A stretch of 28,804 nucleotides of DNA from an uncultured bacterium (GCA_963977015.1 CAXBMO010000042.1:1-28804); one strand, 5' to 3'. Counted from the first letter of the stretch, positions 686 to 22,372 are shown. Notes: a model not told the origin generated them from the sequence alone. Translations and numbers: made by a program.

Positions 686-714
686 TGAGGGGTCTTCAAA
701 AAATCGGCGTTTAA
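686..714 (+). promoter_or_regulatory. ECF-type promoter P1 (A-type)
   Basis: TGAGGGGT-N14-CGTTTAA, 26 nt upstream of ATG 741. Confidence 0.85.
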
Positions 715-740
715 CCCTTTAAAGCACAACTTTAAAAACT

Positions 741-1004
741 ATGAAATACCCCATCTACACAACAACTCTCCTTGCCCTCTTTGCTGGCGTTTCCTGGGCC
801 GTACCTCCAACCAAAAGCCACCACTCCATCGTCCGGGCAAAAAATGCCAAGGCCCACCAGGAGCAGATGCAACAAACGAAGCAGACCGCGAGTCAGCGCC
901 CCACAACCATCGCTCTGGACGTTGGTAAGGGTAAAGCTAAAGCGATTGTGAAAGGGAAGCGAAATCAATTCCAGGCCTATCATCATCGCAACAAAGGTCA
1001 CTAA
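741..1004 (+). CDS. Small secreted basic peptide, paralog 1 (xPPxKS...HHRNKGH family)
   Basis: Signal peptide ending VSWA; clear paralogs at 10150-10407 and 21244-21507. Confidence 0.9.
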   Translation: MKYPIYTTTLLALFAGVSWAVPPTKSHHSIVRAKNAKAHQEQMQQTKQTASQRPTTIALDVGKGKAKAIVKGKRNQFQAYHHRNKGH

Positions 1005-1039
1005 ATCTCTCTCTTCGCGGCCCAATCGATGGGCAAACG

Positions 1040-1080
1040 GGAGTCCTAGCGAATTCTACAGCAGAAGCGCTAGAGGCTCC
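1040..1080 (+). terminator. Imperfect stem-loop downstream of peptide 1
   Basis: GGAGTCCTAGCG...CGCTAGAGGCTCC inverted repeat; weak U-tract. Confidence 0.45.
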
Positions 1081-1155
1081 TGTAGTTCATGAAGATTGAT
1101 AATTTAGAATAGTTAAGGCTTGCAAATCGCCCAATTGCAGTTTCTCTTCCTCCCC

Positions 1156-1554
1156 ATGCGGGTGCCTACCGCCATCACAATCCTTTTTCTTTGGGTGAGT
1201 TGTTATCTCAACTGCACCACGGGACTGTTTGCGCAACTCAGTGAAGAAATTAGGGGCGGTGATTTTCGCGCAGAGTGTTCAACCTGCCCTCACGATCAAC
1301 CTGTCCCAGAAGAGCAAAAGAGGCCCTGCGGAGATTGCGACTCGATCGCAAAATTAGCTGAAACGGAGACTTTTTCTCCTAAGCTGATGGAGAGTCGCGA
1401 TACAGAAGGCGTCTTCCATGCGTCTTTGGCAGGCGACTCGATCAGGCAACTGGTTTTGCTGAATCAGCGTCCCAAATCCACGGAGGCGCTTTTTTCCTGT
1501 GGTGAGCCAGCTTGGGCTCACATTTCGCGGCCCATTCGCGGCCCGGCGGTGTAG
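1156..1554 (+). CDS. CzcI/DUF2946-like leader protein with two CxxC motifs and an arrest-like C-terminus
   Basis: Hydrophobic N-terminus, CSTC and CGDC motifs, ends AWAHISRPIRGPAV; lies directly upstream of the TolC-MFP-RND operon. ATG 1156 preferred over TTG 1120. Confidence 0.7.
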   Translation: MRVPTAITILFLWVSCYLNCTTGLFAQLSEEIRGGDFRAECSTCPHDQPVPEEQKRPCGDCDSIAKLAETETFSPKLMESRDTEGVFHASLAGDSIRQLVLLNQRPKSTEALFSCGEPAWAHISRPIRGPAV

Positions 1555-1687
1555 TTCTGCGCCGGAGAAGAATTTCCGGGGACCGCTCGTTCCCGCCCAT
1601 TTCTCAGGCGCACGGTTCTGGTCTTTTTTCGGCTTCCTCGTGCCCACGTGGTGCGCCCTTTGCCAGCGAATTGCATTTTTCTTTCCT

Positions 1688-2959
1688 ATGATCCTTCCGT
1701 CTTGTTACTCACTCACACCTCTATTCTTCATCAGCTTACTGGCTGCGAACCATCTCCTTCTCGCGCAAGAGAAACCTGCTCCGTTTACAATTGAGGAGTT
1801 GGTCACTCAAGCTTTGGAAAGCAATCCCGAGCTTCAATTTTACGAAGCTGAGATTGCATCCGCGAAGGCTGGCCGGCGGGAGGCTGGCAGACTTGGAAAT
1901 CCCGAACTCGACTTCGACTTCGGCCGGAAAAGGTCAACCGGCGCCGATTTTCGAAGCGAAGGCGTGGCTTATGCCGTGGCCTTGGCGCAGCCGCTGGAAT
2001 GGCCGGGCAGAATCGGTTTGCGCAAGGCAATTGCAGATGGCGAAATCGACTTGGCGGAGCTTGGCCTGAAGCGTTTCAAATACGCCTTGGCCGGTCAGGT
2101 GCGGCAGTTGGCTTTCCGCGTTTCAATCGCTCAGGAAAAGGCCGCCGTGGCTCGCGATGTGGCCGGTCGGTTTAACGCCGTGAAGGATGTTTTGCTCCAG
2201 CGCGAAGTGGGTGGAATCGCTCCCCACCTGGAAATCAAAGTCATCGACGCTGCCACGATGACGATGGAGAAGGAGTCGCTGGAGGCGGCGGTGGAGGTTC
2301 AGATGGCGCTTCTGGAGCTAAACCAATTGATGGGCAGGTCTGCGGTCTCCCCTCTGGTAGTTGCCCGCGCGAAAACCGATTTTCCCGACATGCCGGAAGT
2401 CGCCAGACTGATGGAACTGGCGGTCGAAAGGAATTACGAAATGCAGGTGCTGCGGGCGGAACTGGCGCAGCAAGGCTTCCGCGTTTCGCTGGCGAAAAAT
2501 GAACGTTATCCCACGATTAAGGTCGGCCCCTACGTCTCCCGCGAGGAGGCCGGTGAGGTGGAGAGCGAGGCCGGAATTGGTTTCTCGCTAGAGCTGCCCA
2601 TTTTTCGAAACGGCAAAGCCAAGGTGTCCCAGGCCCAAGCCCGAGAAGCCCAGGCCGAGGCAACGATTAATGCTGCCGCCCGGAGGTTGGAGCGCGAAGT
2701 GGCGTCCGCCGCGCTGGTTTATTTGAACTCGCGCAAGCAACTGCAAGGCTGGCCGGCCGAACGAATCGACGCGCTTCAAGATTCGGCGCAGTCGGCGGAC
2801 CGGCATTACCGGCTGGGTGCGGTTCCTGTAGCGACTTACATCGAGCTTCAGGAGAAATATCTAGAAGCTTTGGAGGCCGTCAACGACGTGAAAGCCGATG
2901 CTCTGGAAGCTTGGCTAACTATCGAGCAACTGACCGGCGCGACGCCTGAATTTGACTAA
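1688..2959 (+). CDS. TolC/CzcC-family outer membrane efflux protein
   Basis: Signal peptide from ATG 1688, ALESNPEL motif, two OEP helical repeats. Confidence 0.93.
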   Translation: MILPSCYSLTPLFFISLLAANHLLLAQEKPAPFTIEELVTQALESNPELQFYEAEIASAKAGRREAGRLGNPELDFDFGRKRSTGADFRSEGVAYAVALAQPLEWPGRIGLRKAIADGEIDLAELGLKRFKYALAGQVRQLAFRVSIAQEKAAVARDVAGRFNAVKDVLLQREVGGIAPHLEIKVIDAATMTMEKESLEAAVEVQMALLELNQLMGRSAVSPLVVARAKTDFPDMPEVARLMELAVERNYEMQVLRAELAQQGFRVSLAKNERYPTIKVGPYVSREEAGEVESEAGIGFSLELPIFRNGKAKVSQAQAREAQAEATINAAARRLEREVASAALVYLNSRKQLQGWPAERIDALQDSAQSADRHYRLGAVPVATYIELQEKYLEALEAVNDVKADALEAWLTIEQLTGATPEFD

Positions 2960-2988
2960 CCAACACATTCCACAACCCAAACCAAATC

Positions 2989-3717
2989 ATGAAAAAACAA
3001 CTGAGACATGGCTACCGCGTTATTGGCTTGGCCGTGAGCGCCGCCTTGGGCTTCGCCATCCCGGCAAACGCGAACGATGAACTGGAACGCCCCCCCGGCC
3101 CGGTGACGGGCGACAACCCGAACATTGGCATCAAGTATGACAAGAAGCAGGGCCTCTACGTGACCCCGTTTTCCGCAAAGTTGCTCGGCCTGGAAATGGC
3201 CGACGTAGATGAATCCGAGATCTTCTCCACGCTCACACTCCAGGCCCGGGTGTATGACAATCCCGGCGACGGCACAGCTCAGGCCAGCGCGTGGCTTCCC
3301 GAAGAAGAAGCGAAGCTGGTGCAATCCGGTCAGGCGGTCCTGCTCGATGGAGATCGGGCTGGAGAGATTACCGCAGTTTCGGAGAAGATGAACGGTCAGG
3401 CAGAGGTATTGCTGTCAATCGCGGATCCCGCAGGTGGGTTGAAAGTCGGGAAGTTTCTATCCGGAAATCTCGCGATCTCAAGTAACGGCCCGGTGACCGT
3501 GGTCCCGGAGAAGGCCATCATCCATTCCGCGGAGGGAGCGTTCGCCTACGTCGACAACGGCGGCTGGACGGTTCGCACACCGGTGGAAGTCGGTGCCATC
3601 GCTGGAGGTAAAGCCGAGATCATCGACGGGATTTACTTCGGGGATCGCGTCGTGACGCAGCCGGTCATGGCGCTCTGGATGACGGAACTGCAACTCCTGA
3701 AATCGGGCAAGGCCTGA
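2989..3717 (+). CDS. Reduced periplasmic adaptor (MFP, CzcB/CusB-like), 242 aa
   Basis: Signal peptide; C-terminal VVPEKAI...VEVG...EIIDGIYFGDRVV typical of MFPs; located between TolC and RND. Confidence 0.85.
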   Translation: MKKQLRHGYRVIGLAVSAALGFAIPANANDELERPPGPVTGDNPNIGIKYDKKQGLYVTPFSAKLLGLEMADVDESEIFSTLTLQARVYDNPGDGTAQASAWLPEEEAKLVQSGQAVLLDGDRAGEITAVSEKMNGQAEVLLSIADPAGGLKVGKFLSGNLAISSNGPVTVVPEKAIIHSAEGAFAYVDNGGWTVRTPVEVGAIAGGKAEIIDGIYFGDRVVTQPVMALWMTELQLLKSGKA

Positions 3718-3730
3718 AGCTGCGCCCACT

Positions 3731-3748
3731 GAGTGCCGGTCGGCACTC
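3731..3748 (+). other. Intra-operon hairpin between the MFP and RND genes
   Basis: GAGTGCCG-GT-CGGCACTC perfect inverted repeat. Confidence 0.55.
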
Positions 3749-3808
3749 TCGAAGCCAAACCCTCGAACTCGATTTGCAACCCCGACATCTCATGACACGC
3801 CGATTTTC

Positions 3809-6800
3809 ATGATTAACTGGATCGTCACCCAAGCAATGCGGCAGCGCGCCATGGTGGTGCTCGCCACGCTCATTCTCATCGGGACGGGCATCTGGTCTGC
3901 CCTGAACCTCTCCGTGGACGCCGTGCCGGACATCACCCATGTCCAGGTTCAGGTCAATACGGCAGTCCCCGCGCTCGCTCCCGAGGAGATCGAGAAACTC
4001 GTCACATTCCCGATCGAAACCGAGATGGCGGGTCTTCCGGGGATGACCGACCTCCGCTCGCTCTCGAAATACGGCCTCTCCCAGGTGACGATGGTTTTCG
4101 AGGACGGATCGGACATTTACCTGCTTCGCCAACTCGTCGCGGAGCGCCTCCAGACCGTGCAGGAGGAAATTCCCGAGGGCCTCACGCCCCAACTCGCCCC
4201 GATCGCCACCGGGCTCGGCGAGATTTTCTACTACTTCATCGACTACGCGGAGGACGCGGCCAACGCTCCCGAAGATCCGCTGGAGCGACTCATGGCGTTG
4301 AAGCTGATTCACGATCTGCAGGTCAAACCACTCCTGCGGGCCACTCCCGGTATCACCGAGATCAATGTGACCGGTGGTTACGAGAAACAAATTGTCATTC
4401 AGCCCTACCCGGAGCGACTCACCGCTGTCGGAATGACGCTCGAAGACGTCGCCGACAAGATCGCGATGAACACCGAGAACGTCGGAGGGGGGCTCATCGA
4501 ACTCGGCGGCGAGCAGGTCGTCATCCGGGGAGACAACCGTGTCGCCACGATCGAGGAAACCGCCAAACTCCCGCTGAAGTTCGGGGCCGGCGTCGATCCC
4601 TTGCTGGTCGAGGACATCGCCGAAATTCGCATCGGCCACAGCTTCCGCACGGGGGCCGCCACGGTGCGTGGCAAGGAAGCCGTCGTCGGCACGGCTGTCA
4701 TGCTGCTCGGCGAGAACAGCCGCACCGTCTCCGTCGCCGTCGCGGATCGGCTAGGCAAGATCCAGGAAAAACTGCCCGAAGGCGTCATCATCGAAGCCCT
4801 TTACAACCGGTCGGATCTGGTCGATGCGACCATTCACACGGTGGAGAAGAACCTCTTTGAGGGAGCCATTTTCGTTGTCGTTGTCCTGCTCCTCATGCTC
4901 GGAAATTTCCGCGCGGCGCTGATCGTTGCCTGTGCGATTCCGCTCTCGATGCTGTTCGCCTTCACCGGAATGGTCACCAACGAGATATCCGGAAATCTGA
5001 TGAGTCTCGGCGCGATCGACTTCGGCCTCATCATCGACGGAGCTGTCGTCATGGTGGAAAACATCGTCCGCCACCTCGCCGAGAAACAGAAAGCTCTCGG
5101 CCGCAAACTCAACGCGCAGGAACGCTTCGAGGAAGTGCTCGTCTCTGCCCGCGAGGTCGCCAACCCCATGTTCTTCGGCGTCCTTATCATCACGGTGGTC
5201 TATGTGCCGATCCTCGCTCTCACCGGGATCGAGGGGAAAATGTTCCGCCCGATGGCGCTCACCGTGATGTTCGCCCTCATCGGCGCGCTCATCCTCTCGC
5301 TCACCCTGATGCCGGTGCTCTGCTCCTATTTCCTGAAAGGCGAGATCAAAGAGAAAGACTCCCGGCTCGTCACCTTCTTCAAGTTTCTCTACGCACCGAT
5401 CCTGCAATTCGCGCTGCGCTTTCGCTGGATCGTCGCCCTGGCGATGTTCGGGTTGTTCGGCTTTTCGCTGTTCCTTTTCAGCCGGATGGGGGCCGAATTC
5501 GTCCCAGAACTCGACGAGGGCGATCTCACGATCCAGTTCATCCGCAGCATCAGCGCCGGACTCGACGCCTCGCTCGATCTCCAGCTCAAGTCCGAGAAAC
5601 TGCTGCTTGAGAAATTTCCCGAGGTCGAGGACGTCTTCGCCCGGATCGGCACCTCGGAAGTGGCGATGGACCCGATGGGGCCGAACCTCGCCGACACCTT
5701 CCTCATGCTGAAGCCGCGAAGCGAGTGGCGGAAGATCGACGGCCGCACCATCACCAAAGCGGAACTCGGTAGTCTCATGCGCGACGAACTCTCCCTGAAT
5801 GTTCCGGGACAAGGCTACCTCGTCACACAGCCCATTCAGATGCGATTCAATGAGATCATGGCCGGTGCCCGGGCCAATTTGCTCTGCAAAATTTTTGGCG
5901 AAGACTTCGATGAACTCGAACGCCTCGCCGGAGAAGCCCGTGCCTTGATCGTCGCGATCCCAGGAGCCAGCCAGGTCGAGTTTGACAACGTGGGGCGGAA
6001 CCCAACGCTGGAGATCACTCCGAACCGCGACGCAATGCGCAAATTCAACGTGCAGGCCGACGAAATCAACGCCGTCGTCCGTGCCGCCCTCGCCGGGGAG
6101 GAAACCGGCATGATGATCGACGGAAACCGCCGCTACGAGATCGTGGTGAGATTGCCCGAAAGAATCCGCACCGACATCAAAGCCATCAAGCGTCTTCCCC
6201 TCCGCACCGAAGACGAAGGGCTCATCACCCTCGGCCAGGTCGCCAACATCGAGATGGTGCAGCAGGTCGGGACCATCGCCCGCGAAGCCACCCAACGGCG
6301 CGTCTCGATCCTCATCAACAACGAAGGCCGCGACACCGAAAGCTTCGTCGAGGAAGCGCAGGCCGCTCTACGCGAACAGGTCGATTGGCCCGACGGCTAC
6401 TATTTCGAGTTCGGCGGCCAGTTCGAGAATCTGATCAAAGCCAAAAAGCGCCTCTCCGTCGTCGTTCCTGTCGCGATGGGACTCATCTTCGTGCTCATCT
6501 TCATGAGCTTCGGCAGTTTCCGGCAGGCGGCGCTGATCTTCACCTGCGTTCCGCTCGCCATCACCGGCGGCATCTTCGCAATCTACCTGCGCGGGATGCC
6601 CTTCACCATTTCCGCCGGTGTCGGTTTTATCGCGCTGAGCGGGATTGCCGTCCTCAACGGGATCATGCTCATCAGCTTCATCAACCAACTGCGCGAGGGC
6701 GGCATGGGCCTGCGCGACGCCGTCGTCCAGGGGTCACTGACCCGCCTCCGCCCCAAGCTCATGACCGCGTTGGTCGCCTCCTTTGGCTTCATCCCCATGG

Positions 6801-7003
6801 CCATCGCCACCGGACCTGGCGCCGAGGTGCAGCGACCGCTCGCCACGGTCGTGATCGGCGGAATCATCACCTCCACGATCCTGACCCTCGTCCTGCTGCC
6901 CACGCTTTACGAATGGCTGGAGAAAAATTCCGAGCGCCGAAAGCTCATCGAGCGCGAAGAATTCGAACCGTCGCAAGCAGCCGATCCCGTCGCCGCCTCC
7001 TGA
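3809..7003 (+). CDS. czcA: Heavy-metal efflux RND permease, CzcA/CusA family
   Basis: 1064 aa; DAVPDIT, SLSKYGLSQV, TM4 GAIDFGLIIDGAVVMVEN, GAEVQRPLATVVIGG. Confidence 0.95.
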   Translation: MINWIVTQAMRQRAMVVLATLILIGTGIWSALNLSVDAVPDITHVQVQVNTAVPALAPEEIEKLVTFPIETEMAGLPGMTDLRSLSKYGLSQVTMVFEDGSDIYLLRQLVAERLQTVQEEIPEGLTPQLAPIATGLGEIFYYFIDYAEDAANAPEDPLERLMALKLIHDLQVKPLLRATPGITEINVTGGYEKQIVIQPYPERLTAVGMTLEDVADKIAMNTENVGGGLIELGGEQVVIRGDNRVATIEETAKLPLKFGAGVDPLLVEDIAEIRIGHSFRTGAATVRGKEAVVGTAVMLLGENSRTVSVAVADRLGKIQEKLPEGVIIEALYNRSDLVDATIHTVEKNLFEGAIFVVVVLLLMLGNFRAALIVACAIPLSMLFAFTGMVTNEISGNLMSLGAIDFGLIIDGAVVMVENIVRHLAEKQKALGRKLNAQERFEEVLVSAREVANPMFFGVLIITVVYVPILALTGIEGKMFRPMALTVMFALIGALILSLTLMPVLCSYFLKGEIKEKDSRLVTFFKFLYAPILQFALRFRWIVALAMFGLFGFSLFLFSRMGAEFVPELDEGDLTIQFIRSISAGLDASLDLQLKSEKLLLEKFPEVEDVFARIGTSEVAMDPMGPNLADTFLMLKPRSEWRKIDGRTITKAELGSLMRDELSLNVPGQGYLVTQPIQMRFNEIMAGARANLLCKIFGEDFDELERLAGEARALIVAIPGASQVEFDNVGRNPTLEITPNRDAMRKFNVQADEINAVVRAALAGEETGMMIDGNRRYEIVVRLPERIRTDIKAIKRLPLRTEDEGLITLGQVANIEMVQQVGTIAREATQRRVSILINNEGRDTESFVEEAQAALREQVDWPDGYYFEFGGQFENLIKAKKRLSVVVPVAMGLIFVLIFMSFGSFRQAALIFTCVPLAITGGIFAIYLRGMPFTISAGVGFIALSGIAVLNGIMLISFINQLREGGMGLRDAVVQGSLTRLRPKLMTALVASFGFIPMAIATGPGAEVQRPLATVVIGGIITSTILTLVLLPTLYEWLEKNSERRKLIEREEFEPSQAADPVAAS

Positions 7004-7036
7004 ATTTCCTTTAACCAAACCCAAAACAAATAAACG

Positions 7037-7492
7037 ATGAAAACCAAACCAAAAATCCAAACCCTCCTCGCCTGTCTCGCTTTCACTGTCGCCCTCCCGG
7101 CGATGGCCGATGAAGAGGCCAAAGAAGTCGAAGCCGGAGCCCGCGGCGGGCGTCTCCTCGCCACCGAAAGCCCCCGTCCCGAGTTCTTTGTCGAGAAAGA
7201 CCACACTGTTTCGGTGAAGTTCTACAACGAAGCCAAGGAAGTCGTGGCGCCGACCACGCAGCAAGTCACGGTCATCGCAACCGGAGCCAAGAAAGCCAAA
7301 CTGGCCCTGACCAAGAAAGAGGACGCCCTCGTCTCCACCGAGCCGCTGCCTGAAGGCGATGGCTACAACCTGGTGGTCCAGGTTCGCCCCGATGCCGATT
7401 CGCGCCCGGAGAACTTTCGGTTCACGTTTTTGAATCACATCTGCGGCGGCACCTGCGGCAATCCCGAATATGCCTGCACTTGCGACGAGTGA
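7037..7492 (+). CDS. Secreted protein with C-terminal CxxxC-x3-EYACTC motif (paralog A)
   Basis: Signal peptide AMA|DE, GARGGR motif, ends CGGTCGNPEYACTCDE; paralogs at 27319 and 28085. Confidence 0.88.
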   Translation: MKTKPKIQTLLACLAFTVALPAMADEEAKEVEAGARGGRLLATESPRPEFFVEKDHTVSVKFYNEAKEVVAPTTQQVTVIATGAKKAKLALTKKEDALVSTEPLPEGDGYNLVVQVRPDADSRPENFRFTFLNHICGGTCGNPEYACTCDE

Positions 7493-7513
7493 TTGGGAAC
7501 CCGGCTCGTCCCG

Positions 7514-8125
7514 ATGAGCAGTTGCGATTGTCATTCAGAGCAAACCGACACTCTTCAGCGGTCGGTCTTGGCGACTCTGTTAGCGATCAATGGCCTCATG
7601 TTCGCCGCCGAGTTTGGCCTGGGAATTCTGGCCGACTCCACCGGCCTGATCGCCGATTCGCTCGACATGCTGGCCGACGCCACCGTATACGGCCTCTCGC
7701 TGTATGCGGTGGGCCGGGCAGCGAGTGTCAAGACGAATGCCGCGCGCTTGAGTGGCTATTTTCAGATTGCTTTGGCGATCGGCGTATTTCTCGACATCGT
7801 TCGCCGGTTCATCTTTGGCAGCGAACCAGTTTCGACGCTGATGTTTGGGGTGGGGCTGGTTGCCTTGGCGGCAAACGTGGCTTGCCTCTTGCTGCTGGCC
7901 AAACATCGCAAAGGCGAGGTGCACATCCGGGCGAGCTGGATCTTTTCCAAAAACGACGTCATCGCGAATCTGGGGGTGATGGGCGCTGGAGTGTTGGTTC
8001 ATCTGACTGGTCAAAAATGGCCCGATCTTGCAATCGGTCTTCTAATCGTGATCGTCGTCTTTCGTGGTGGGTTGGAGATCACCAAGGATGCCAAGAACGA
8101 GAGCTGTCTTGACTATGAAGACTGA
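7514..8125 (+). CDS. Cation diffusion facilitator (Cation_efflux) transporter, membrane domain only
   Basis: MSSCDCH N-terminus, STGLIADSLDMLAD, SKNDVIAN, WPDL; 5-6 hydrophobic segments. Confidence 0.9.
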   Translation: MSSCDCHSEQTDTLQRSVLATLLAINGLMFAAEFGLGILADSTGLIADSLDMLADATVYGLSLYAVGRAASVKTNAARLSGYFQIALAIGVFLDIVRRFIFGSEPVSTLMFGVGLVALAANVACLLLLAKHRKGEVHIRASWIFSKNDVIANLGVMGAGVLVHLTGQKWPDLAIGLLIVIVVFRGGLEITKDAKNESCLDYED

Positions 8126-8719: not shown

Positions 8720-8748
8720 TGGGGGGTAAACGTGCATCCGGCGTTTAA
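8720..8748 (+). promoter_or_regulatory. ECF-type promoter P2
   Basis: TGGGGGGT-N14-CGTTTAA, 12 nt upstream of ATG 8761. Confidence 0.8.
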
Positions 8749-8760: not shown

Positions 8761-9540
8761 ATGACTGATTCTGACAACGCAACGAATGGGGGCAAACTTT
8801 CTGCGAATTCTAATCCGATTAGCCTTGCCGGAAAGCTGGCGGCGGTGTTCCGGGAACATGGTTTGTCCGAAGGAGTTGGCGTCTTGATCCACTATGGCGT
8901 GGACCGCGCGGCGGACGCCTGGTTTGGAATTGGCACAAGGCGGTGTGTGAATTTGGCCGGCCTTGGCTATGAATCCGAGGATTTTGTCGATTACGCACCG
9001 ATAACCTACTGGGCGTTCTGGATTGCCCTGAACCGTTGCCGGATTGTCCCGGAAGACGTTTTTGTCGATTTCGGCGTTGGCCGTGGCCGTTGTCTCGTGG
9101 TTGCCGGTACCCGGCGTTTTCGGAAGGTGATCGGCGTTGAATTGGTTCCCGAACTGGCGCAACAAGCCCGCAGCAATATGGAACTGGCCCGAAAACGATT
9201 GCGGTGCAAAAGTTGGGAAGTCGTCGAAACAAATGCCGAACAATTTTCGATACCCGCGGAATCTACCATCCTGCATTTTTACAATCCGTTTCGCGGACCG
9301 ACCTTGGATCGCGTGATTGTGAACTTGGCCGACTCCCTGCGCAATCATCCCCGGCAAATCACGGTTCTTTTCGGCAATCCAGACGATTTCCAACGCATCC
9401 TCAATGTCGGGGAACCGATTCCGGAATCCTGGGTGAAGCAGAATAAGATCGTAAAATGGCCCGGATACCGCCCGAATGACGATTTACTGGGAAATCTTTA
9501 TCGAGTCTACAAAATCGACTCAACAAAAGCCGAAACCTGA
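8761..9540 (+). CDS. Class I SAM-dependent methyltransferase
   Basis: VFVDFGVGRGR (motif I), VIGVEL (motif II), HFYNPF. Confidence 0.9.
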   Translation: MTDSDNATNGGKLSANSNPISLAGKLAAVFREHGLSEGVGVLIHYGVDRAADAWFGIGTRRCVNLAGLGYESEDFVDYAPITYWAFWIALNRCRIVPEDVFVDFGVGRGRCLVVAGTRRFRKVIGVELVPELAQQARSNMELARKRLRCKSWEVVETNAEQFSIPAESTILHFYNPFRGPTLDRVIVNLADSLRNHPRQITVLFGNPDDFQRILNVGEPIPESWVKQNKIVKWPGYRPNDDLLGNLYRVYKIDSTKAET

Positions 9541-10149: not shown

Positions 10150-10407
10150 TTAGTAGCCCTTGCGCTGCAGATGCCTTCGGATGATTGAGGTTTGTCTCTT
10201 TTCTTTGCCGATGTTGAGGCCGACTGTCGATTGGCGTTGCGTGGACTGCTGCACGGTTTGCCCTGATTCCCTTGCCTCTTTCGCTTTTTCCTGGTGCTCC
10301 TTACGAACACGCTGGAACGATTGGTAGTTGGACTTGGTTGGAGGTACAGCCCAGGAAACGCCGACTGCCAAGACCAAAAAGGATATTAAGTAGATGGGTT
10401 TTTTCAT
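10150..10407 (-). CDS. Small secreted basic peptide, paralog 2
   Basis: MKKPIY...VSWA|VPPTKS...TVGLNI...HLQRKGY. Confidence 0.88.
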   Translation of the reverse strand: MKKPIYLISFLVLAVGVSWAVPPTKSNYQSFQRVRKEHQEKAKEARESGQTVQQSTQRQSTVGLNIGKEKRQTSIIRRHLQRKGY

Positions 10408-10431: not shown

Positions 10432-10459
10432 TTAAACCCGCCCAAAGCATCACCCCTCA
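10432..10459 (-). promoter_or_regulatory. ECF-type promoter P3 (A-type)
   Basis: TGAGGGGT-N13-GGTTTAA upstream of ATG 10407. Confidence 0.75.
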
Positions 10460-10525: not shown

Positions 10526-10554
10526 TGAGGGCTTGCCGACCATTTGGTGTTTTA
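10526..10554 (+). promoter_or_regulatory. ECF-type promoter P4 (A-type variant; autoregulation of cascade 1)
   Basis: TGAGGGCT-N14-TGTTTTA, 13 nt upstream of ATG 10568. Confidence 0.65.
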
Positions 10555-10567: not shown

Positions 10568-10921
10568 ATGAATCCTCCGAATCCAGATTCCGATAACGAT
10601 CCCAAGCTCCGCGAAACGCTGCAATCCTGGGATGTCGAAATGACCGCTCCGCCCGGTTTTCGCCGGGAAGTCTGGCAGCGGATCGCAGTTCGTAGCGAAC
10701 CCAAGGCCTTTTGGGTGCGTCACTTTCAGTCTTTTGGCGAGTTCTTCGCCCACCCCGTGGTCGCCGGAGGGGTGGCACTCTTGGTGATCGGCGTTGCCGT
10801 CGCCAGTGCGCGAGTCCATTCAGGGATCGCTGCCCAACAAAGAATGCACGAGTTGAGCGAACAATACGTCGTCAGCATCGACCCGCTTTTGAGAAGCCAT
10901 TTCCATCCTGAGAAGCCATGA
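10568..10921 (+). CDS. Putative single-TM anti-sigma factor (CnrY position), cascade 1
   Basis: LRETLQSW...FRREVWQRI N-domain and one TM helix; ATGA overlap with the next gene. Confidence 0.8.
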   Translation: MNPPNPDSDNDPKLRETLQSWDVEMTAPPGFRREVWQRIAVRSEPKAFWVRHFQSFGEFFAHPVVAGGVALLVIGVAVASARVHSGIAAQQRMHELSEQYVVSIDPLLRSHFHPEKP

Positions 10922-11433
10922 AAAAGGGACTCTTGATCTTTGTCGCTATTCTTCTGACTGGCGCAGTCGCCTATTGCGCAGTTTTTCGCTGGTCGTATGC
11001 CCATACCGCGATGATGAGCCAGTCGCAAGACGCCGAATTGGAGTGGCTGCGCCACGAATTCTCTCTTTCGGCCGATCAGTTTGAAACGGTGCGCGAACTT
11101 CACGCGGCTCACGATTTGGAATGCCTCAGACACTGCGAAGCCCTTGCGCTCAGCAATGATCGGTTGTTTCGCCTGATGCGGGAGAGCACGGAGATCACGC
11201 CAGAAATCGAAACGGCCCTCCAAGCGGCAACGGAACTGCGCGAAGAATGCCGACGTTCGACTTTGCGACACATCTACGAGGTTAGCCAACACATGAACAC
11301 CGAATCTGCGCAGCGTTACCGTGAGACGATGACGGCGCGCTTGGTGGATTCCGGACTGCACCACCGCACCGCTATTTCGCCCACTTCCCTGGATTGGAAG
11401 GGCTCACACGGTCATCAGCCAGCGAACCACTAG
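10918..11433 (+). CDS. Periplasmic heavy-metal sensor, CnrX/Spy-CpxP-like, Cys-containing variant
   Basis: N-terminal TM, WLRHEFSLSADQF, ECLRHC, EECRRSTLRHIYEV. Confidence 0.82.
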   Translation: MKKGLLIFVAILLTGAVAYCAVFRWSYAHTAMMSQSQDAELEWLRHEFSLSADQFETVRELHAAHDLECLRHCEALALSNDRLFRLMRESTEITPEIETALQAATELREECRRSTLRHIYEVSQHMNTESAQRYRETMTARLVDSGLHHRTAISPTSLDWKGSHGHQPANH

Positions 11434-16040: not shown

Positions 16041-16619
16041 TCAGCTCTCTTTCGTCATTTTCAGGGCCAAAAAGCGTTTTGCCCGGCGCACCCGGGATTC
16101 CACCGCCCTCACCGTGCATCCCAGCTTTTTTGCGGTTTCAGCTTGGGAGTGACCTTCCAGCGCGAACAAGATTAATGCGTCTCTTAGCGGTGGCGGTAGG
16201 GTAGAGATAGCTTGGTGCAATCGGGCAATTTCTTCAGACAGCGACGCTTCTTCATCGGGGGCGGCTTCAAGCGCGAGTCTTCCGTCATTTTCAAGGTTGG
16301 ATTCCTGAAGGACGGCGGCAAAGTCTCCCGGACGCCGTTTCCGTTTTCGGAGGTGGTCGCGGCACAAATTGGCAGCGATGGCATAGAGCCAGGTTTGGAA
16401 TTTAGCGTCCGATCTTACTCGATAGCGGTGACGTTTGGAATACGCTCTGTAAAACGTTTGGGAAAGGACATCTGATGCCTCATGGGCATCCTGAAGGTGC
16501 CAGTAAATAAAGCGGAACAGACCTTCGTTGTGAAGCTCAATCAGCTCTTCAAGGGCAGCTTCATCCCCCGTCTTGAATCGCTCGACCAGCGACGAATCGT
16601 CATCCTCCTTCCCGGACAT
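16041..16619 (-). CDS. ECF RNA polymerase sigma factor (CnrH-like), cascade 2
   Basis: DVLSQTF...FQTWLYAIAANLCRD; SQAETAKKLGCTVRAVESRVRRA. Confidence 0.95.
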   Translation of the reverse strand: MSGKEDDDSSLVERFKTGDEAALEELIELHNEGLFRFIYWHLQDAHEASDVLSQTFYRAYSKRHRYRVRSDAKFQTWLYAIAANLCRDHLRKRKRRPGDFAAVLQESNLENDGRLALEAAPDEEASLSEEIARLHQAISTLPPPLRDALILFALEGHSQAETAKKLGCTVRAVESRVRRAKRFLALKMTKES

Positions 16620-16633: not shown

Positions 16634-17098
16634 TTACTTGCTCGGACCAGTTGACCGGTTGCGCAGCGCTTCCGTTACCAGCTTTAGCAGCTTTTCAAAT
16701 TGCTCTGGAGTGAGGGCGGCTTCCATCTCCAAAAGGTGCTCGATGGTTGCCTTCTGGAGTTCCCCTTGGATTTCATGGATCTCGGTGATGATGGCGTCTA
16801 CTTGGGACGAGTAGGCGCGGTCGCGTTCCAGTGCGTCGGCCAATTCGGAGACCGCCCTGGCGTTAGCGGCTTTCAGTTCGGCTTCGCGGTCAAGAAAGTG
16901 TTGTTCGATCGTTTCCAGCGAGCTTACTTGCTTCGGGCTCAGCCCCAAATCCCGCTGGAGAACTTCGTGAGCATGGGCGTGAAGTTGGGGATGGTGATCG
17001 GCTGGCCGGAAAAACCGGAGAGCCAACGCACAGCCCAGCGCAGCGGCGGTCAAAACGCACAAAAAGAGAAGCGCCCCGTTTTTCCAGGTCAAACTCAT
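16634..17098 (-). CDS. CnrX/NccX-like periplasmic heavy-metal sensor, cascade 2
   Basis: ATG 17098 (ATGA overlap); TM, HAHAHEVL...IEQHF...ELQKATIEHLLEM, matching the CnrX-type HxxEM site. Confidence 0.88.
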   Translation of the reverse strand: MSLTWKNGALLFLCVLTAAALGCALALRFFRPADHHPQLHAHAHEVLQRDLGLSPKQVSSLETIEQHFLDREAELKAANARAVSELADALERDRAYSSQVDAIITEIHEIQGELQKATIEHLLEMEAALTPEQFEKLLKLVTEALRNRSTGPSK

Positions 17099-17421
17099 CG
17101 GCCCAAGATTATTTGATACGGCATGCCGGAGGCTTCTGCGTCGAAAACGGCCAGCCTCAATGAATCGCGCAGGGGATCGGTCGAGTCTTTGTTTTGTGAG
17201 AATGCTGAGATCCCTCCCCAAACTAAGCCGAACACCAGAGCCACGCAGGCCAAGGCAGCACTTAACTGCGAGAAACTCAGCCAGGCAAAGCAGGGTTCGG
17301 GAGTCGCTTCGGAATCGCGCAATTTGCGCACCGCCCGAAGCACTTGATGAGGAGGTGGGGCAACGGGGAGCGACGTGACACTTAGGTTCTCCAACAATTC
17401 GTCGATGTGTTGTGGCGTCAT
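17095..17421 (-). CDS. Putative single-TM anti-sigma factor (CnrY position), cascade 2
   Basis: MTPQHIDELLENL...VLRAVR, one TM helix, LAVFD; downstream of promoter P5. Confidence 0.8.
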   Translation of the reverse strand: MTPQHIDELLENLSVTSLPVAPPPHQVLRAVRKLRDSEATPEPCFAWLSFSQLSAALACVALVFGLVWGGISAFSQNKDSTDPLRDSLRLAVFDAEASGMPYQIILGR

Positions 17422-17440
17422 GATGTGTGTGTTTAGGGGG

Positions 17441-17469
17441 GTAAACGCCGAGTGGATATGAATCCCACA
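17441..17469 (-). promoter_or_regulatory. ECF-type promoter P5 (T-type variant; autoregulation of cascade 2)
   Basis: TGTGGGAT-N14-CGTTTAC upstream of ATG 17421. Confidence 0.75.
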
Positions 17470-17515: not shown

Positions 17516-17544
17516 TGTGGGGTGGGTGCAAGACCGGCGTTTAA
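17516..17544 (+). promoter_or_regulatory. ECF-type promoter P6 (T-type)
   Basis: TGTGGGGT-N14-CGTTTAA upstream of tolC 17636. Confidence 0.85.
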
Positions 17545-17635: not shown

Positions 17636-18982
17636 ATGCCCTCATTTCCGAATATCCACCTCCTCATCGCCCATCTGAGTTTGCTCTTTGGAGCGAGCTT
17701 CGTCACCAGTTGCGCCATCCCGGCCCATTCCGAAACGGAGGCTGCTGAGTTACCCAGTGTCGTCGCGAACTCTGGCCCCACAAATGATTCGACCAGCTTC
17801 ACCCCGGCACGCGCCATCGATCACGCCCTGGCTAACAACCCGGAATTACGGGCGGCGCGCTATCAAATCGCAGTGGCGCAAGCAAACTTAAAGTGGGCGG
17901 GTCGGCTGAATGATCCCGAATTCGAACTGGGAGCAAATACCGACCAATGGGGCCTGAACGACAACGAAAGTCTGGTCGAAGTCGCCCTCTCCCAGAAATT
18001 TCCGCTGACCGACCGCCTCAAGCGGGAGCGCAATCTTTCCGAAGTGGACCTGGCCCTGGCCAAGGCCGAAGTGCATGTGGCCGAATGGAACTTGGCTGCC
18101 GAAGTCCGCCAGGCGACCGTCGATGCATTGGCGCTTCAGCGGCAAATCCGGCTTCGACAAGAGTTGAAAGGGGTGCTGGCGGAATTGGCCGGGCAGATCG
18201 AAGAAGCGTTTCAAGTCGCGGAGGCTTCGCCACTGGACTTGACCGAGGCCAAGCTGGAGGTGGAGACGCAAACGCGGACGATCCGCGAATTGGAGGCGGA
18301 ACTGGTTCGCGTGATGGGCGGTTTGCGAGGCTTGCTGGGACTGCCGCCCGAATCCGCTGTAGCGGTCTCCGGAAACCTGGATGAACCATCTGGCTACCGC
18401 ATTGCGCCGGACGCGGAAGTGCTGGCGCAGCGTCCTGATCTGCAACTGAGCTTGCTGCAACAGCGCCGCGCCGAGGCGTCGATTGCACTGGCCCGTTCGC
18501 GGCGCTGGCAAGATGTAGCGGTGCGCTTGTTTTTGGAACGCGATGCGGCAGTGGACGAACCAGAGGGTCTGGAGCGAAACACCTTTGTTGGCGTCGGCTT
18601 TTCCTTGCCGCTTCCCCTGCGCACGCCGGAAGCGCGCCTGACCGATGCGCCCCGCCAGGAACTGGCAGCGGCGGAAGCTTCCACGGACGCGCTGGCCGCG
18701 ATGATTCGCAACGACATTACCACGGCGAACGAGGAACTGGCGCAGCGTCGCCAAGCCTGGGCTCAAGTGACAGCGGAGACTCTTCCGCTCGCTCGCCAAA
18801 ATGTTCGGGAAGTGCGCGAATCCTATCGTCTGGGAAAGGAAGGATTCGTCCGGCTGCAACGCGCTCAGGAGCGCGCGCTGGACATCGAAGAGAGCGCGAT
18901 CGAAGCGCTCCATCAGTATCATCTGGCACTCGCCCGATTGCGCAAAGCGGCGGCCGCAGATGTTTCGGAGCGATCGGATTGA
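17636..18982 (+). CDS. TolC/CzcC-family outer membrane efflux lipoprotein
   Basis: Lipobox VTSC, ALANNPELRAAR, RPDL motif, OEP repeats. Confidence 0.92.
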   Translation: MPSFPNIHLLIAHLSLLFGASFVTSCAIPAHSETEAAELPSVVANSGPTNDSTSFTPARAIDHALANNPELRAARYQIAVAQANLKWAGRLNDPEFELGANTDQWGLNDNESLVEVALSQKFPLTDRLKRERNLSEVDLALAKAEVHVAEWNLAAEVRQATVDALALQRQIRLRQELKGVLAELAGQIEEAFQVAEASPLDLTEAKLEVETQTRTIRELEAELVRVMGGLRGLLGLPPESAVAVSGNLDEPSGYRIAPDAEVLAQRPDLQLSLLQQRRAEASIALARSRRWQDVAVRLFLERDAAVDEPEGLERNTFVGVGFSLPLPLRTPEARLTDAPRQELAAAEASTDALAAMIRNDITTANEELAQRRQAWAQVTAETLPLARQNVREVRESYRLGKEGFVRLQRAQERALDIEESAIEALHQYHLALARLRKAAAADVSERSD

Positions 18983-19039
18983 TAGCGAAGGCCAGTCGAT
19001 GGAGACGCCTTTCCTGGACTTAAAATGAGATCATGAATA

Positions 19040-21100
19040 ATGGAAGACTCCCACGAAAACCACGCTCACGATCAAGGCACTGAGGATTCCGAGGCTCCGC
19101 ATGCCCACGGCGGCATCTTCGGGGAACGAACCGAACTGATATTCTCCCTCATCTGCGGCGCGCTTCTCCTTGTGGGATTCGTGCTCTCGAAAACTATCTC
19201 GTCTGGTAATACCCTCATCCCTTGGGTTTTCTATCTCACGGCCTATTTCTTCGGGGCCTGGTTTACCGCGAAAGAAGCCCTTGAAAAAATCCTGAAACGC
19301 CAGTTCGAGATCGATTTTCTCATGCTCGTCGCCGCGATTGGTGCGGCAACGCTGGGCGAATGGGCGGAGGGTGCCCTACTTCTCTTTCTGTTCAGCCTCG
19401 GTCATGCTCTGGAACACTATGCGATGGGACGCGCCCGCCGGGAAATCGAGGCTCTCGGCGAGCTTGCCCCGAAAACGGCCCTCGTCCGGCAGGGTGATTC
19501 GCTCGAAGAGGTGTCGGTCGAGGATTTGGAAGTAGGCGATATCGTCGTCATCAAACCCGACGAACGCGTTCCCGCCGACGGATTTGTCGTTAAGGGCGAG
19601 AGTAGCGTGAATCAGGCCCCGATCACGGGCGAGAGCGTTCCTGTCGATAAACGACCCGTCGATGATCCGATTGCGACCACCGTAGATTCCGGGAAGATCG
19701 CTCCCGAGCATCGGCTCTTCGCCGGATCGATCAATCAGAGCGGAGCGCTCGAAATGCAGGTGACAAAACTATCCGGCGAATCCACTCTGGCCCGTGTGGT
19801 CCAGATGGTTAGCGAGGCCGAGACGCAACAATCACCGACCCAACAGTTCACCGACCGGATCGAGCGCGTCTTCGTTCCTTCCGTCCTGATTCTCGTCGTG
19901 CTCTTGCTCTTCGCCTGGGCTCTCGTTGACGAAACTTTTGCTCAATCATTCTATCGCGCCATGGCGGTCCTTGTCGCCGCGAGTCCTTGCGCCCTCGCCA
20001 TCGCGACACCCAGCGCCGTCCTGAGTGGAGTGGCACGGGCAGCTCGTGGAGGAGTCCTCGTGAAGGGTGGCGGCCCGCTCGAAAATCTAGGGCAACTTGG
20101 AGCCATCGCCTTCGACAAAACCGGCACCTTGACTGAGGGAAAACCTCGTCTCACCGACGTCGTGCCTGCCGGTGAAGCCTCCGAGGAGGATCTGCTCGAT
20201 ACAGCCATCGCCGTCGAGCAACTTAGCGATCACCCCCTCGCAGCCGCCGTCGTCCGCGATGGCACCGAACGGCTCGGTCGCTCCGCCGGAACCGAAGCCT
20301 CCAATATTCAGAGCATCACCGGTCGTGGAGTTAGCGCGGAAATCGCAGGGGAGATTGTCCACATCGGCAAAGACGACCTTTTTTCAGAAGTCGAAGGTCC
20401 TACTCTTCCTGATGCCATTCGACAAACCGTCGAGAAGCTCGAAACCGAGGGACGCACTACGATGATTGTGCGCCGGGGAAATCGCTATCTCGGCGTGCTC
20501 GGTCTGATGGACACCCCACGCAAGTCCGCTCGGGGCATGATCGAACGGCTTCGTGGACTCGGCATCCAACGCATGATCATGATCTCCGGCGACAACCAGA
20601 AAGTCGCCACCGCGATCGCCAAAGAAGTCGGACTCGACGAAGCGTGGGGCGATCTCATGCCCGAGGATAAAGTATCCTCGATCAAAAAACTGCGTAAGCA
20701 GCAGGAAGTCGCCATGGTCGGCGATGGAGTCAATGACGCCCCCGCCATGGCCAACGCCACCGTCGGCATCGCCATGGGCGCGGCGGGATCTGACGTCGCG
20801 CTGGAGACCGCTGATGTCGCTCTCATGGCCGACGATCTCGACCATCTGCCCTTCGCCGTCGGGCTCAGCCGTAAGACCAGCCGCATCATCAAACAGAACG
20901 TCTGGTTCAGTCTCGGGATGGTCGCGATCCTCATTCCCTCCACCATGTTCGGTTTGAAAATGGGGGTCGCCGTGTTGTTCCACGAAGGTTCCACCCTTCT
21001 CGTCGTGTTCAATGCCCTGCGACTCCTCGCCTACCGGGAAAAGCCGGTTTCCGTCCGTGGTCAGTTGGCAGAACTGCCTCAATCATCGATGCCGATATAG
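19040..21100 (+). CDS. Heavy-metal P1B-type ATPase, P1B-4 subgroup (Co/Zn/Cd, CzcP-like)
   Basis: TGES, SPC, DKTGT, SDHP, GDGVNDAP and HEGST motifs; short His-rich N-terminus. Confidence 0.95.
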   Translation: MEDSHENHAHDQGTEDSEAPHAHGGIFGERTELIFSLICGALLLVGFVLSKTISSGNTLIPWVFYLTAYFFGAWFTAKEALEKILKRQFEIDFLMLVAAIGAATLGEWAEGALLLFLFSLGHALEHYAMGRARREIEALGELAPKTALVRQGDSLEEVSVEDLEVGDIVVIKPDERVPADGFVVKGESSVNQAPITGESVPVDKRPVDDPIATTVDSGKIAPEHRLFAGSINQSGALEMQVTKLSGESTLARVVQMVSEAETQQSPTQQFTDRIERVFVPSVLILVVLLLFAWALVDETFAQSFYRAMAVLVAASPCALAIATPSAVLSGVARAARGGVLVKGGGPLENLGQLGAIAFDKTGTLTEGKPRLTDVVPAGEASEEDLLDTAIAVEQLSDHPLAAAVVRDGTERLGRSAGTEASNIQSITGRGVSAEIAGEIVHIGKDDLFSEVEGPTLPDAIRQTVEKLETEGRTTMIVRRGNRYLGVLGLMDTPRKSARGMIERLRGLGIQRMIMISGDNQKVATAIAKEVGLDEAWGDLMPEDKVSSIKKLRKQQEVAMVGDGVNDAPAMANATVGIAMGAAGSDVALETADVALMADDLDHLPFAVGLSRKTSRIIKQNVWFSLGMVAILIPSTMFGLKMGVAVLFHEGSTLLVVFNALRLLAYREKPVSVRGQLAELPQSSMPI

Positions 21101-21243
21101 GGGGAACGGAAGCCCTGGTGCGAACTCCACGACCGCCGAATTGCGCTTTAATCCAACGCCATGGTATCGTCGAAAAAATAAAGGGAGAGCCAAAGCGGTG
21201 CGCTTCGACTCTCCGGTTGGTTAGGGCAGGTTGGGCAGGGATG

Positions 21244-21507
21244 TTAGTGTCCCTTGTTGCGGTGATGATAAGCCTGGAACTGGCTACTTCGGCTCTCGGT
21301 GGTTTTGGTCTTAGCGTTGCCTTTAACGTCCAACGCGATCGTCTTCGGACGCTGGGCACCGGATTGGTTCTCTTGTTGTTTCTGCTCCTGGCGCTCCTTC
21401 TTGTCTTTGTTCATGAACATCGAGTAGTGGCTCTTCGAGGGCGGAAAGGACCACGCCGCAGCGGCAGAGATTCCAAGAAGGGTTGCGATATAGATTGGGT
21501 ATTTCAT
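21244..21507 (-). CDS. Small secreted basic peptide, paralog 3
   Basis: MKYPIY...AWS|FPPSKSH...QRPKTIALDV...QFQAYHHRNKGH. Confidence 0.9.
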   Translation of the reverse strand: MKYPIYIATLLGISAAAAWSFPPSKSHYSMFMNKDKKERQEQKQQENQSGAQRPKTIALDVKGNAKTKTTESRSSQFQAYHHRNKGH

Positions 21508-21532
21508 TGGTGTGAGGTTTGTTGTTCAAAGG

Positions 21533-21562
21533 TTTAACGCCACCGGCCTCGCCTACCCCTCA
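21533..21562 (-). promoter_or_regulatory. ECF-type promoter P7 (A-type)
   Basis: TGAGGGGT-N15-CGTTAAA upstream of ATG 21507. Confidence 0.78.
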
Positions 21563-21703
21563 ACTTTTCGTGCCAGCCAACGCTTTTTTATTGGAAAGTT
21601 TTGGGTCGATTTCAAATTGTGCAGAAATAATCGAAAGAGTGAAATAGCAGCGGGCAGGATTTGTGCTTCTTCGCGAGTTGGCGATTCTTGCAAATCTTTT
21701 TTT

Positions 21704-21732
21704 TGTGGGGTGTCTGGAACAGAGGCGTTTAA
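21704..21732 (+). promoter_or_regulatory. ECF-type promoter P8 (T-type, probably leaderless)
   Basis: TGTGGGGT-N14-CGTTTAA, 6 nt before GTG 21739. Confidence 0.85.
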
Positions 21733-21738
21733 GCTCAC

Positions 21739-22329
21739 GTGACCAACTCCACCCCACCACCCAACAGACGATCGCACGGCGGGCGATCCGAATTCACTCT
21801 CAACCTGACGATTGTTTCCGCAACGCTGGCGTCAGTTCTTGTTGGAATGACCGCCTACGCAGCCTTCGAATTATTCTTCACGGATTCAACGATGAGTGCC
21901 CGCGATTTCTGGGCTCACCACTTCCTGCCTGCCGCGGTGATTGGATCGATCGTTTGGGTGACCCTGACCGTGCTTCTCCACAAATTGGTAGTGGAGCCGG
22001 TCCGGCAAATTTTCGGGCACCTTTACCGAATCGGTTCGGGAAGACTTGAGCCCCTCGAAATGGATTCTCGGATCCAGGAAATTCGGTCGGTGGCCGAAGG
22101 CGTAAATCTGCTCGTTAGACGCTTGAAAACAGCGCCGGACAACGCGCCGCTTGAGCGAGCAATCGGACACTTGGGCAAAGTTCGATCGGACATGAGCGCC
22201 GCGATTGATGCAGCCGGGAGCGACGCCGATCATCTCGTCGCAGCGATGAGTGACCTCGCCGCATTGGAAGCGGACCTTCTCGCCGTCGCCGAGACGAGTC
22301 GGAGTCTTGCGAGACTTAAACAGGCATAG
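21739..22329 (+). CDS. Two-TM HAMP-domain protein with no recognisable output domain
   Basis: Two TM helices flanking ARDFWAHH, then VVEPVRQI...IGSGRL...EIRSVAEGVNLL (HAMP pattern). Confidence 0.75.
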   Translation: MTNSTPPPNRRSHGGRSEFTLNLTIVSATLASVLVGMTAYAAFELFFTDSTMSARDFWAHHFLPAAVIGSIVWVTLTVLLHKLVVEPVRQIFGHLYRIGSGRLEPLEMDSRIQEIRSVAEGVNLLVRRLKTAPDNAPLERAIGHLGKVRSDMSAAIDAAGSDADHLVAAMSDLAALEADLLAVAETSRSLARLKQA

Positions 22330-22343
22330 AAATTCGAAAATTG

Positions 22344-22372
22344 TGTGGGGTAGCCGAATTGGCGGCGTTTAA
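22344..22372 (+). promoter_or_regulatory. ECF-type promoter P9 (T-type)
   Basis: TGTGGGGT-N14-CGTTTAA upstream of ATG 22411. Confidence 0.85.

Follow-up and report, generated by a model that had tools for sequence, protein, structure and literature searches.

Nine probable CnrH-type promoter sites across a metal-efflux island of an uncultured bacterium

The window analysed here, a DNA stretch of 28,804 nucleotides (nt), is the whole of contig C42 (CAXBMO010000042.1:1-28804) in the 51-contig assembly GCA_963977015.1 (6,885,723 bases) of an uncultured bacterium. Between positions 686 and 22,372 it carries nine copies of a two-box motif, TGnGGGGT followed after 13-15 nt by CGTTTAA or a variant of it. 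Analysis of these sites and of the genes around them suggests, with a probability that we put at roughly 0.85, that they are promoters of the type read by CnrH, a sigma factor of the extracytoplasmic function (ECF) class; their placement in the group ECF291 follows the gene layout. The regulon is of an expected kind, related to the CnrYXH nickel/cobalt switch, and does not represent a new kind of regulation. It adds a conserved link between the regulon and three protein families that are uncharacterised, as well as a possible insulation of paralogous sigma factors by one base.

The exact sequence GGGGT-N14-CGTTTAA occurs five times in the window, always on the plus strand, with boxes that start at 686, 8720, 17516, 21704 and 22344. 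When the spacer is allowed to vary (GGGGT-N13-15-CGTTTAA), all five matches have N14 and none is found in 100 dinucleotide-preserving shuffles, and each of the five CGTTTAA heptamers of the window lies inside an exact site. Three further sites (10459-, 17469- and 21562-) differ by one to two base changes or by a 1 nt shift of the spacer, and the ninth, 10526+, with TGTTTTA in the -10 position, is the weakest. The single nine-copy consensus proposed in an earlier note on this DNA therefore needs loosening: all nine sites exist, but the exact fit holds for five of them, three are near variants and one is weak. A position weight matrix trained on the other eight sites, leaving out 10526+, gives them scores of 26.2-35.5, which are circular, being scores of the training sites themselves; the value for 10526+ is 11.9, and no other position in the window exceeds 7.6.

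In our working gene map, in which just 10.9% of the window is intergenic, none of the nine sites overlaps a gene, and each faces the gene adjacent to it, with a gap of 6-91 nt between the last base of the -10 heptamer and the start codon. The site at 686..714 (+), TGAGGGGT-N14-CGTTTAA, lies 26 nt before the gene of small secreted protein 1 and a row of outer membrane efflux protein (OEP), membrane fusion protein (MFP), resistance-nodulation-division (RND) pump and cation diffusion facilitator (CDF) genes. The site at 8720..8748 (+), TGGGGGGT-N14-CGTTTAA, is found 12 nt before a methyltransferase gene. Three sites read TGTGGGGT-N14-CGTTTAA: one at 17516..17544 (+), 91 nt before OEP and P-type ATPase genes, one at 21704..21732 (+), 6 nt before the GTG start of a HAMP-like membrane protein gene, and one at 22344..22372 (+), 38 nt before a His-rich protein gene and an MFP-RND row. 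On the minus strand, the variants at 10432..10459 (TGAGGGGT-N13-GGTTTAA) and 21533..21562 (TGAGGGGT-N15-CGTTAAA) precede the genes of small secreted proteins 2 and 3 by 24 and 25 nt, respectively, while that at 17441..17469 (TGTGGGAT-N14-CGTTTAC) stands 19 nt before the operon of one of two sigma factor modules, module B, in a position suited to autoregulation. The weak variant at 10526..10554 (+), TGAGGGCT-N14-TGTTTTA, is located 13 nt before the operon of the other module, module A, and probably represents the promoter type of that module's own sigma factor, sigma A. The intergenic, correctly oriented placement claimed in the earlier note thus holds for every copy, as do the back-to-back divergent pairs, of which there are three (10459-/10526+, 17469-/17516+ and 21562-/21704+).

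Alignment of the nine regions reveals that the two boxes are conserved while the spacers and flanks are not; therefore the sites are not copies of one repeated element. This observation also bears on the proposal that the copies are leftovers of segmental duplication, i.e. promoters copied along with paralogous genes and not under common control at present. Paralogues do stand downstream (three small proteins, two RND systems and two OEPs), and the leaders of the small-protein genes share sequence 3' of the -10 box. However, the motif also precedes unrelated genes (methyltransferase, HAMP-like, cnrY-like and OEP), its boxes are nearly invariant between unconserved surroundings, and the boxes persist before homologues in other genera even though the sequence around them has diverged. 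We consider duplication without common control to be extremely unlikely.

Occurrence of the motif is strongly biased towards this contig. A genome-wide check, as the earlier note had proposed, finds six copies of the strict motif in the 6,885,723 bases, five of them in the 28.8 kb contig that makes up 0.4% of the genome and one at C8:86332. Of the form GGGGT-N12-GGCGTTTAA there are six copies in this genome and three in the family's 133 other genomes, as compared to nine copies of its reversed control over all 134 genomes. The exact consensus is a feature of this genome, and the relatives have looser versions of it. Matrix matches scoring at least 14 number 52 in the 6.9 Mb genome; those on other contigs are mostly chance-like matches within long open reading frames (ORFs), and only the ones on contigs C8, C14 and C4 precede plausible genes. 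In the sigma-neighbour loci of other genomes (28 loci, 96.5 kb), 11 of the 28 contain a match of at least 14, compared with about 0.7 expected from the rate in this genome.

The sequences upstream of the known cnr genes on plasmid pMOL28 show the same arrangement. The region 5' of cnrY reads CAAGGGGGAG-N12-CCGTATAA and that 5' of cnrC CGAGGGGAAG-N13-CCGTATAG, so that CGT is separated from the end of the G-run by 15 nt and 16 nt, respectively, as compared to 15 nt in the window. The statement in the earlier note that CnrH promoters combine a G-run -35 with a CGTAT-like -10 is borne out by both regions. The published -35 consensus of the cnr promoters is reportedly CRAGGGGRAG, with which both pMOL28 sequences agree. 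From the shared G-run, CGT core and spacing, the motif of the window would therefore be of the CnrH promoter type, with CGTTTA replacing CGTATA.

A third and weaker block, ATTC(C)-N3-5-GAAA, partly palindromic (TTCC..GGAA), is present about 12-20 nt 5' of the -35 box at most of the nine sites (for example at 672-684, 8705-8718 and 17500-17512). It could be an UP-like element or the site of a second factor. Its palindromic character would also suit the view that the motif is not a promoter but the operator of a DNA-binding regulator, either a response regulator or a metal sensor of the MerR/ArsR type, and the different palindrome found before three small-protein paralogues in a related genome (described below) indicates that other regulators act on that gene family. 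However, the two boxes themselves are not palindromic, their orientation to the gene is strict, their spacing is fixed at 13-15 nt, and they lie at promoter distance from the start codons. No gene for a metal-sensing transcription factor was found in the family scans of the window. In addition, the boxes match those of cnrYp, whose -10 box CCGTATA is given in the available part of PMC13492112 as verified by primer extension and run-off transcription. An operator is thus a very unlikely explanation. In Table 4 of the same source, as far as the available text goes, the ECF291/CnrH consensus is printed as -35 ATACGC and -10 CCCTCA. The reverse complement of this, TGAGGG ... GCGTAT, fits the cnrY and cnrC boxes of pMOL28 as well as the motif of the window, and it is possible that the printed consensus is wrongly oriented, which would affect the ECF291 assignments of that study.

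The promoter reading is strengthened by the two regulatory modules present in the window, in each of which the sigma gene is the third of three tightly packed genes that encode a short membrane protein with a single span, a protein of the Metal_resist family (PF13801) and the sigma factor, i.e. the order cnrY-cnrX-cnrH. Module B, on the minus strand, consists of a CnrY-like membrane protein of 108 amino acids (aa) (17095..17421), a CnrX homologue (16634..17098) and sigma B (16041..16619, 192 aa). Module A, on the plus strand, consists of a membrane protein of 117 aa (10568..10921), a distant, Cys-rich CnrX-like protein (10918..11433) and sigma A (11434..12039, 201 aa). The two short membrane proteins are candidate anti-sigma factors on account of their size, single hydrophobic span and position. 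Both sigma factors, which are 32% identical to each other, contain only Sigma70_r2 and Sigma70_r4_2 among the sigma-70 domains and pass the TIGR02937 cut-off, and both sensors pass the PF13801 cut-off. The module B sensor aligns over its whole length with the solved CnrX structure (3zg1, E=2.5e-14, residues 30-167) and also with NccX (2e-10). The metal ligands of CnrX listed in the available part of PMC6851896 are His42, His46, Glu63, His119 and Met123; in the printed alignment four of these five (the equivalents of H42, E63, H119 and M123) are kept in the module B sensor, and H46 is replaced by Gln. The module A sensor, a Cys-rich protein, matches CnrX weakly (E=0.016), and of these ligands it has the His119 equivalent alone. 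From the ligands, Ni/Co-like binding would be predicted for the module B sensor and a site based on thiols for that of module A.

In the accessible text of PMC7826278, ECF291, the CnrH group, is described as having a short membrane protein at position -2, a sensor at -1 and metal-efflux genes adjacent, and both modules of the window match this neighbourhood. Two other descendants of ECF20, namely ECF281 and ECF290, also have a PF13801 protein near the ECF sigma factor according to the same partial source, but there it lies at +2, with a zinc-finger or RskA-like anti-sigma at +1, whereas in the window the sensor is at -1 and the membrane protein at -2. The closest characterised system is CnrYXH of Cupriavidus metallidurans CH34 (pMOL28; CnrH is ECF291s9, formerly ECF20), which shares with the window the gene order, a membrane-anchored periplasmic four-helix sensor of which the module B sensor is a homologue, adjacent heavy-metal efflux (HME) RND genes, a regulatory operon that in the window is likewise predicted to be autoregulated, and promoters or promoter-like sites with a G-run -35, a CGT(A/T)T -10 and equal spacing before both regulatory and efflux operons. 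Differences are also clear. The -10 box is CGTTTAA in the window and CCGTATA in cnr, and there are nine sites in 29 kb, with more on three other contigs, as against two cnr promoters. Among the predicted targets in the window are an ATPase of the Zn/Cd type, a CDF, a methyltransferase, a protein resembling HAMP proteins and small secreted proteins; two modules that have diverged from each other stand side by side; and the host does not belong to the proteobacteria.

Relatives of the module B sensor are also found on plasmids (72 matching records), the closest of them on sphingomonad plasmids with 45% identity over 63% of the sensor. On pTA15-1 of Sphingobium sp. TA15 (NZ_AP025357.1) the same three-gene order is present, annotated as 'periplasmic heavy metal sensor / RNA polymerase sigma factor', with a sigma factor 34% identical to sigma B and with three sites of the GAGGGG(G/T)-N12-TGCGTATT type flanking the module, two of them divergent. 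Unlike the modules of the window, this one is linked to the copper genes copA, copB, copC and copD. As far as our searches reached, the cnrYXH-like modules of sphingomonad plasmids are uncharacterised. A class I methyltransferase is encoded next to the pTA15-1 module; a parallel with the methyltransferase of the window was rejected, as the two proteins are not homologous (E 0.87).

Three protein families of uncharacterised role are tied to the motif both inside and outside the window. The first is represented by the HAMP-like protein (21739..22329, +), which in family scans is a protein with two transmembrane (TM) spans, a weak HAMP match and no output domain. Fifteen homologues are present in 14 other genomes of six genera, and a pair consisting of a G-run and GGC(A/G)TT lies directly upstream in 14 of the 15 at a matrix score of at least 7.7 (11 of the 15 at 12.8 or more); in front of the fifteenth the boxes are visible by eye, with a shorter spacer. 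Including the window, such a box pair immediately precedes the gene in 16 of 16 loci, from 15 genomes and seven genera. The homologues are mostly located between a close homologue of the window's P1B-type ATPase gene and OEP-MFP genes, or just 3' of a sigma A-like gene. The ATPase itself (19040-21100) is 76-87% identical to its homologues in several genera of the family, as against 38-49% for the neighbouring HAMP-like proteins, which points either to unusual conservation of the ATPase gene or to its exchange between lineages.

The second family is that of the methyltransferase (8761..9540, +), assigned by family scan to the class I, S-adenosylmethionine (SAM)-dependent, DOT1-like enzymes, with no substrate assigned. 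It has five copies in three of the 134 genomes, and all four copies outside the window have a same-strand site upstream, which in the case of the C14 copy lies 6 nt before the ATG. The third is a lineage-restricted family of small secreted Lys/Gln-rich proteins, represented in the window by protein 1 (741..1004, +, 87 aa) and its paralogues protein 2 (10150..10407, -, 85 aa) and protein 3 (21244..21507, -, 87 aa). A profile search of 1.84 billion representatives returns 13 members at E <=0.001, and the length of the family is 85-94 aa. Its 11 copies among the 134 genomes are confined to three, the same three that contain the closest relatives of sigma B, and the motif lies within 110 nt of seven of them (four of the eight outside the matrix training set). 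Three paralogues in genome G002 (L050, L053 and L055, on contigs C146, C84 and C179) are without the ECF motif; upstream of them another conserved palindrome, ACGTGTAA..AATTACACGT, is present with CGTATAA-like boxes nearby, and another regulator seems to be in control. The earlier note had placed the peptides, the methyltransferase and the HAMP protein in the regulon from the window, and the motif-linked homologues elsewhere agree with this. It had also included the His-rich protein (22411), which does lie behind site 22344+ but is a predicted member solely by this position. Scanning with the matrix in front of the gene 8323-8592(-), which encodes a secreted protein with a very His/Gly/Tyr-rich tail, and of the DUF4062, SBF (sodium/bile-acid symporter) and 15167 genes found nothing above 7.6; these genes are therefore not placed in the regulon.

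Several observations weigh against the CnrH-type reading or reduce the force of the evidence for it. Sigma B is only 29% identical to CnrH, which ranks sixth among the solved relatives of sigma B, after AlgU- and RpoE-like sigma factors. The CnrY-like protein of module B has no detectable similarity to CnrY (E 3.5), the CnrY-like proteins have no family match in Pfam and NCBIfam scans, and a word-index homologue search with the CnrY-like protein returned the self match alone, which says little given the limits of that method. The window-trained matrix gives no score of 2 or more on the pMOL28 promoters, so the likeness to them rests on reading of the boxes and not on the score; the matrix is too narrow for CGTATA-type boxes. 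The gaps of 6 and 12 nt at 21704+ and 8720+ imply leaderless or near-leaderless mRNAs, one of them with a GTG start, unless the starts are miscalled. Among the family counts, the related genomes are not independent, and with several HAMP loci near-identical the independent count is nearer to eight; three of the four methyltransferase sites outside the window lie 0.4-1.1 kb upstream, past another ORF; and four of the 11 small-protein copies have no motif.

Sigma B was modelled with residues 1-48 of its membrane-protein neighbour, each with a 5-row alignment of paralogues and orthologues, which is outside the calibration of the complex tool. The score was 0.79, a mark reached by 58 of 80 solved complexes and by two of 110 mismatched pairs, and the best of three controls scored 0.00. 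The three runs share at least 96% of their contacts, the predicted local distance difference test (pLDDT) value of the partner is 78 or more, and the contacts fall on regions 2 and 4 of the sigma factor. It is possible that this pass stems from likeness to the solved CnrH-CnrY structure. The model supports, and does not show, the binding of the module B membrane protein to sigma B as an anti-sigma factor.

The earlier note had the two local sigma factors drive these promoters. Modules of the CnrH kind are indeed present, as indicated by the CnrX homology and the gene order, but the sigma factors probably divide the sites. Modules of the B type are found elsewhere on contigs C8 (sigma factor 66% identical to sigma B) and C14, with orthologues in genomes G002 and G010. 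In all these paralogues and orthologues a related motif is located 40-50 nt upstream of the cnrY-like gene, and, counting the window, the site directly 5' of the cnrY-like gene is of the GGCGTT type in five of five B-type operons, in many cases paired with a divergent site that precedes an OEP gene, as in the C8 module. The A-type operons, which have the same cnrY-cnrX-sigma order, show GGTGTT in three cases (window, C14 and G001) and GGGGTT in the fourth (G010), i.e. T in three of four and G in one. Because the base before GTT tracks the type of sigma factor, the two sigma factors would divide the sites: the eight GGCGTT-type sites probably belong to sigma B, possibly also to its C8 paralogue, and 10526+, of the GGTGTT type, is probably the promoter of sigma A itself.

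A genome-wide search for more sigma A targets with TGAGGG..GGTGTT showed no enrichment (18 matches against 26 and 14 in the controls), and the C/T split therefore rests on few operons. Recognition across the two types thus stays a live rival, in which both local sigma factors and the 66%-identical C8 paralogue would read all nine sites interchangeably and the island would form one pooled regulon. The -35 boxes of A- and B-type sites are nearly identical (TGAGGG), the C8 promoters match the window consensus exactly, and with GGTGTT having no other plausible target in the genome sigma A would control only itself. In other genera, moreover, sigma-A-like genes adjoin HAMP genes with GGCATT boxes, so that the -10 varies within the A clade. 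Against pooling stand the 32% identity between sigma A and sigma B and the agreement between sigma type and the base before GTT. We regard one pooled regulon as the less probable arrangement, though by no means a negligible one.

Contig C14 carries, at about 24-75 kb (L042-L044), a second large island with 10 matrix matches of at least 14. It contains an A-type module and a B-type module whose sigma gene is duplicated and, it seems, broken (63909-64340), as well as paralogues of the methyltransferase and of the small secreted proteins.

For module B the following mechanism may be proposed, in which the assignment of sigma factors to sites, the transcription start points, the inducing metal and the anti-sigma binding are inferred. 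The sequencing runs listed for this DNA are five DNA runs from two studies, with no RNA run among them. The short single-pass protein encoded two genes upstream would hold sigma B (16041-16619) at the membrane, under the control of the CnrX-like periplasmic sensor encoded between them. Binding of metal to the sensor would free sigma B, and RNA polymerase with sigma B would read TGnGGGGT as the -35 and GGCGTTTAA as the -10. Sigma B would in this way switch on its own operon, as positive feedback, and seven other transcription units, which encode two CusA/CzcA-type RND pumps with adaptors and OEPs, the Zn/Cd-type P1B ATPase, the CDF, the methyltransferase, the three small secreted proteins, the HAMP-like membrane protein and periplasmic proteins rich in His. 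Having a membrane protein and a Cys-rich CnrX-like sensor of its own, sigma A (11434-12039) probably autoregulates from 10526+, in which T replaces C in the -10.

Family scans describe the window as a metal-efflux island with two RND pumps and their adaptors, two OEPs, a P1B ATPase, a CDF and the two ECF sigma genes; both RND pumps score above the CusA/CzcA-family cut-off, and the P1B ATPase passes the Cd/Zn-family model. Behind site 686+ a probable operon (1499..8125, +) encodes an OEP, an MFP-like protein, a CusA/CzcA-family RND pump, a secreted Cys-motif protein and the CDF. Behind 17516+ lie the OEP and the P1B-type (Zn/Cd-family) ATPase (17636..21100, +), and behind 22344+ a His/Tyr-rich secreted protein, an MFP, a CusA/CzcA-family RND pump and two secreted His-rich Cys-motif proteins (22411..28708, +). 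Neither the small secreted and His-rich proteins nor the ORFs 1120-1554 and 15167-16030 gave a usable match in Pfam and NCBIfam scans.

Three paralogous secreted proteins are encoded 3' of the RND genes (7037-7492, 27319-27858 and 27929-28708). Their N-termini are rich in His, and a C-x2-C ... YAC-x-CD motif is present at the C-terminal end; they match no family, have more copies on C8, on C2 and in G002, and may be periplasmic metal-binding proteins. The secreted proteins 8323-8592(-) and 22411-22746(+) both have very His/Gly/Tyr-rich tails; only the latter has the motif upstream, and no paralogue of either is detectable by BLAST in the genome. A 93 aa ORF 3' of the methyltransferase gene (9801-10082) matches only the end of the cation-efflux (CDF) model and resembles a CDF remnant. 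The SBF gene is split into two overlapping ORFs (13659-14114 and 13999-14817) that cover successive parts of the Pfam model, and it is probably frameshifted.

The analysis provides a testable regulon map for the metal-resistance island of an uncultured bacterium. It indicates that the CnrH promoter type (a G-run, about 15 nt and CGT) is retained both on plasmids of beta- and alphaproteobacteria and in this distant lineage. The conserved promoter association ties the HAMP-like, DOT1-like methyltransferase and small secreted protein families to metal stress. Tentatively, and with the odds against it, one may imagine that the CnrYXH circuit has grown in this lineage into a small network whose paralogous sigma/sensor modules, no fewer than two of them in the window and a further three on C8 and C14, are kept apart by one -10 base (C in B-type and T in A-type promoters), and that it has also recruited a HAMP-only two-TM protein, a cytoplasmic DOT1-like methyltransferase and small secreted Lys/Gln-rich proteins, none of which is known to be part of any metal-efflux system. 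The apparent one-base promoter difference between co-resident paralogous sigma factors would offer a simple case for the avoidance of cross-talk among ECF paralogues, and synthetic circuits might draw orthogonal parts from it. Should the HAMP-like protein, the methyltransferase and the small proteins turn out to work with the pumps or in the signalling step, bacterial metal resistance would gain new components.

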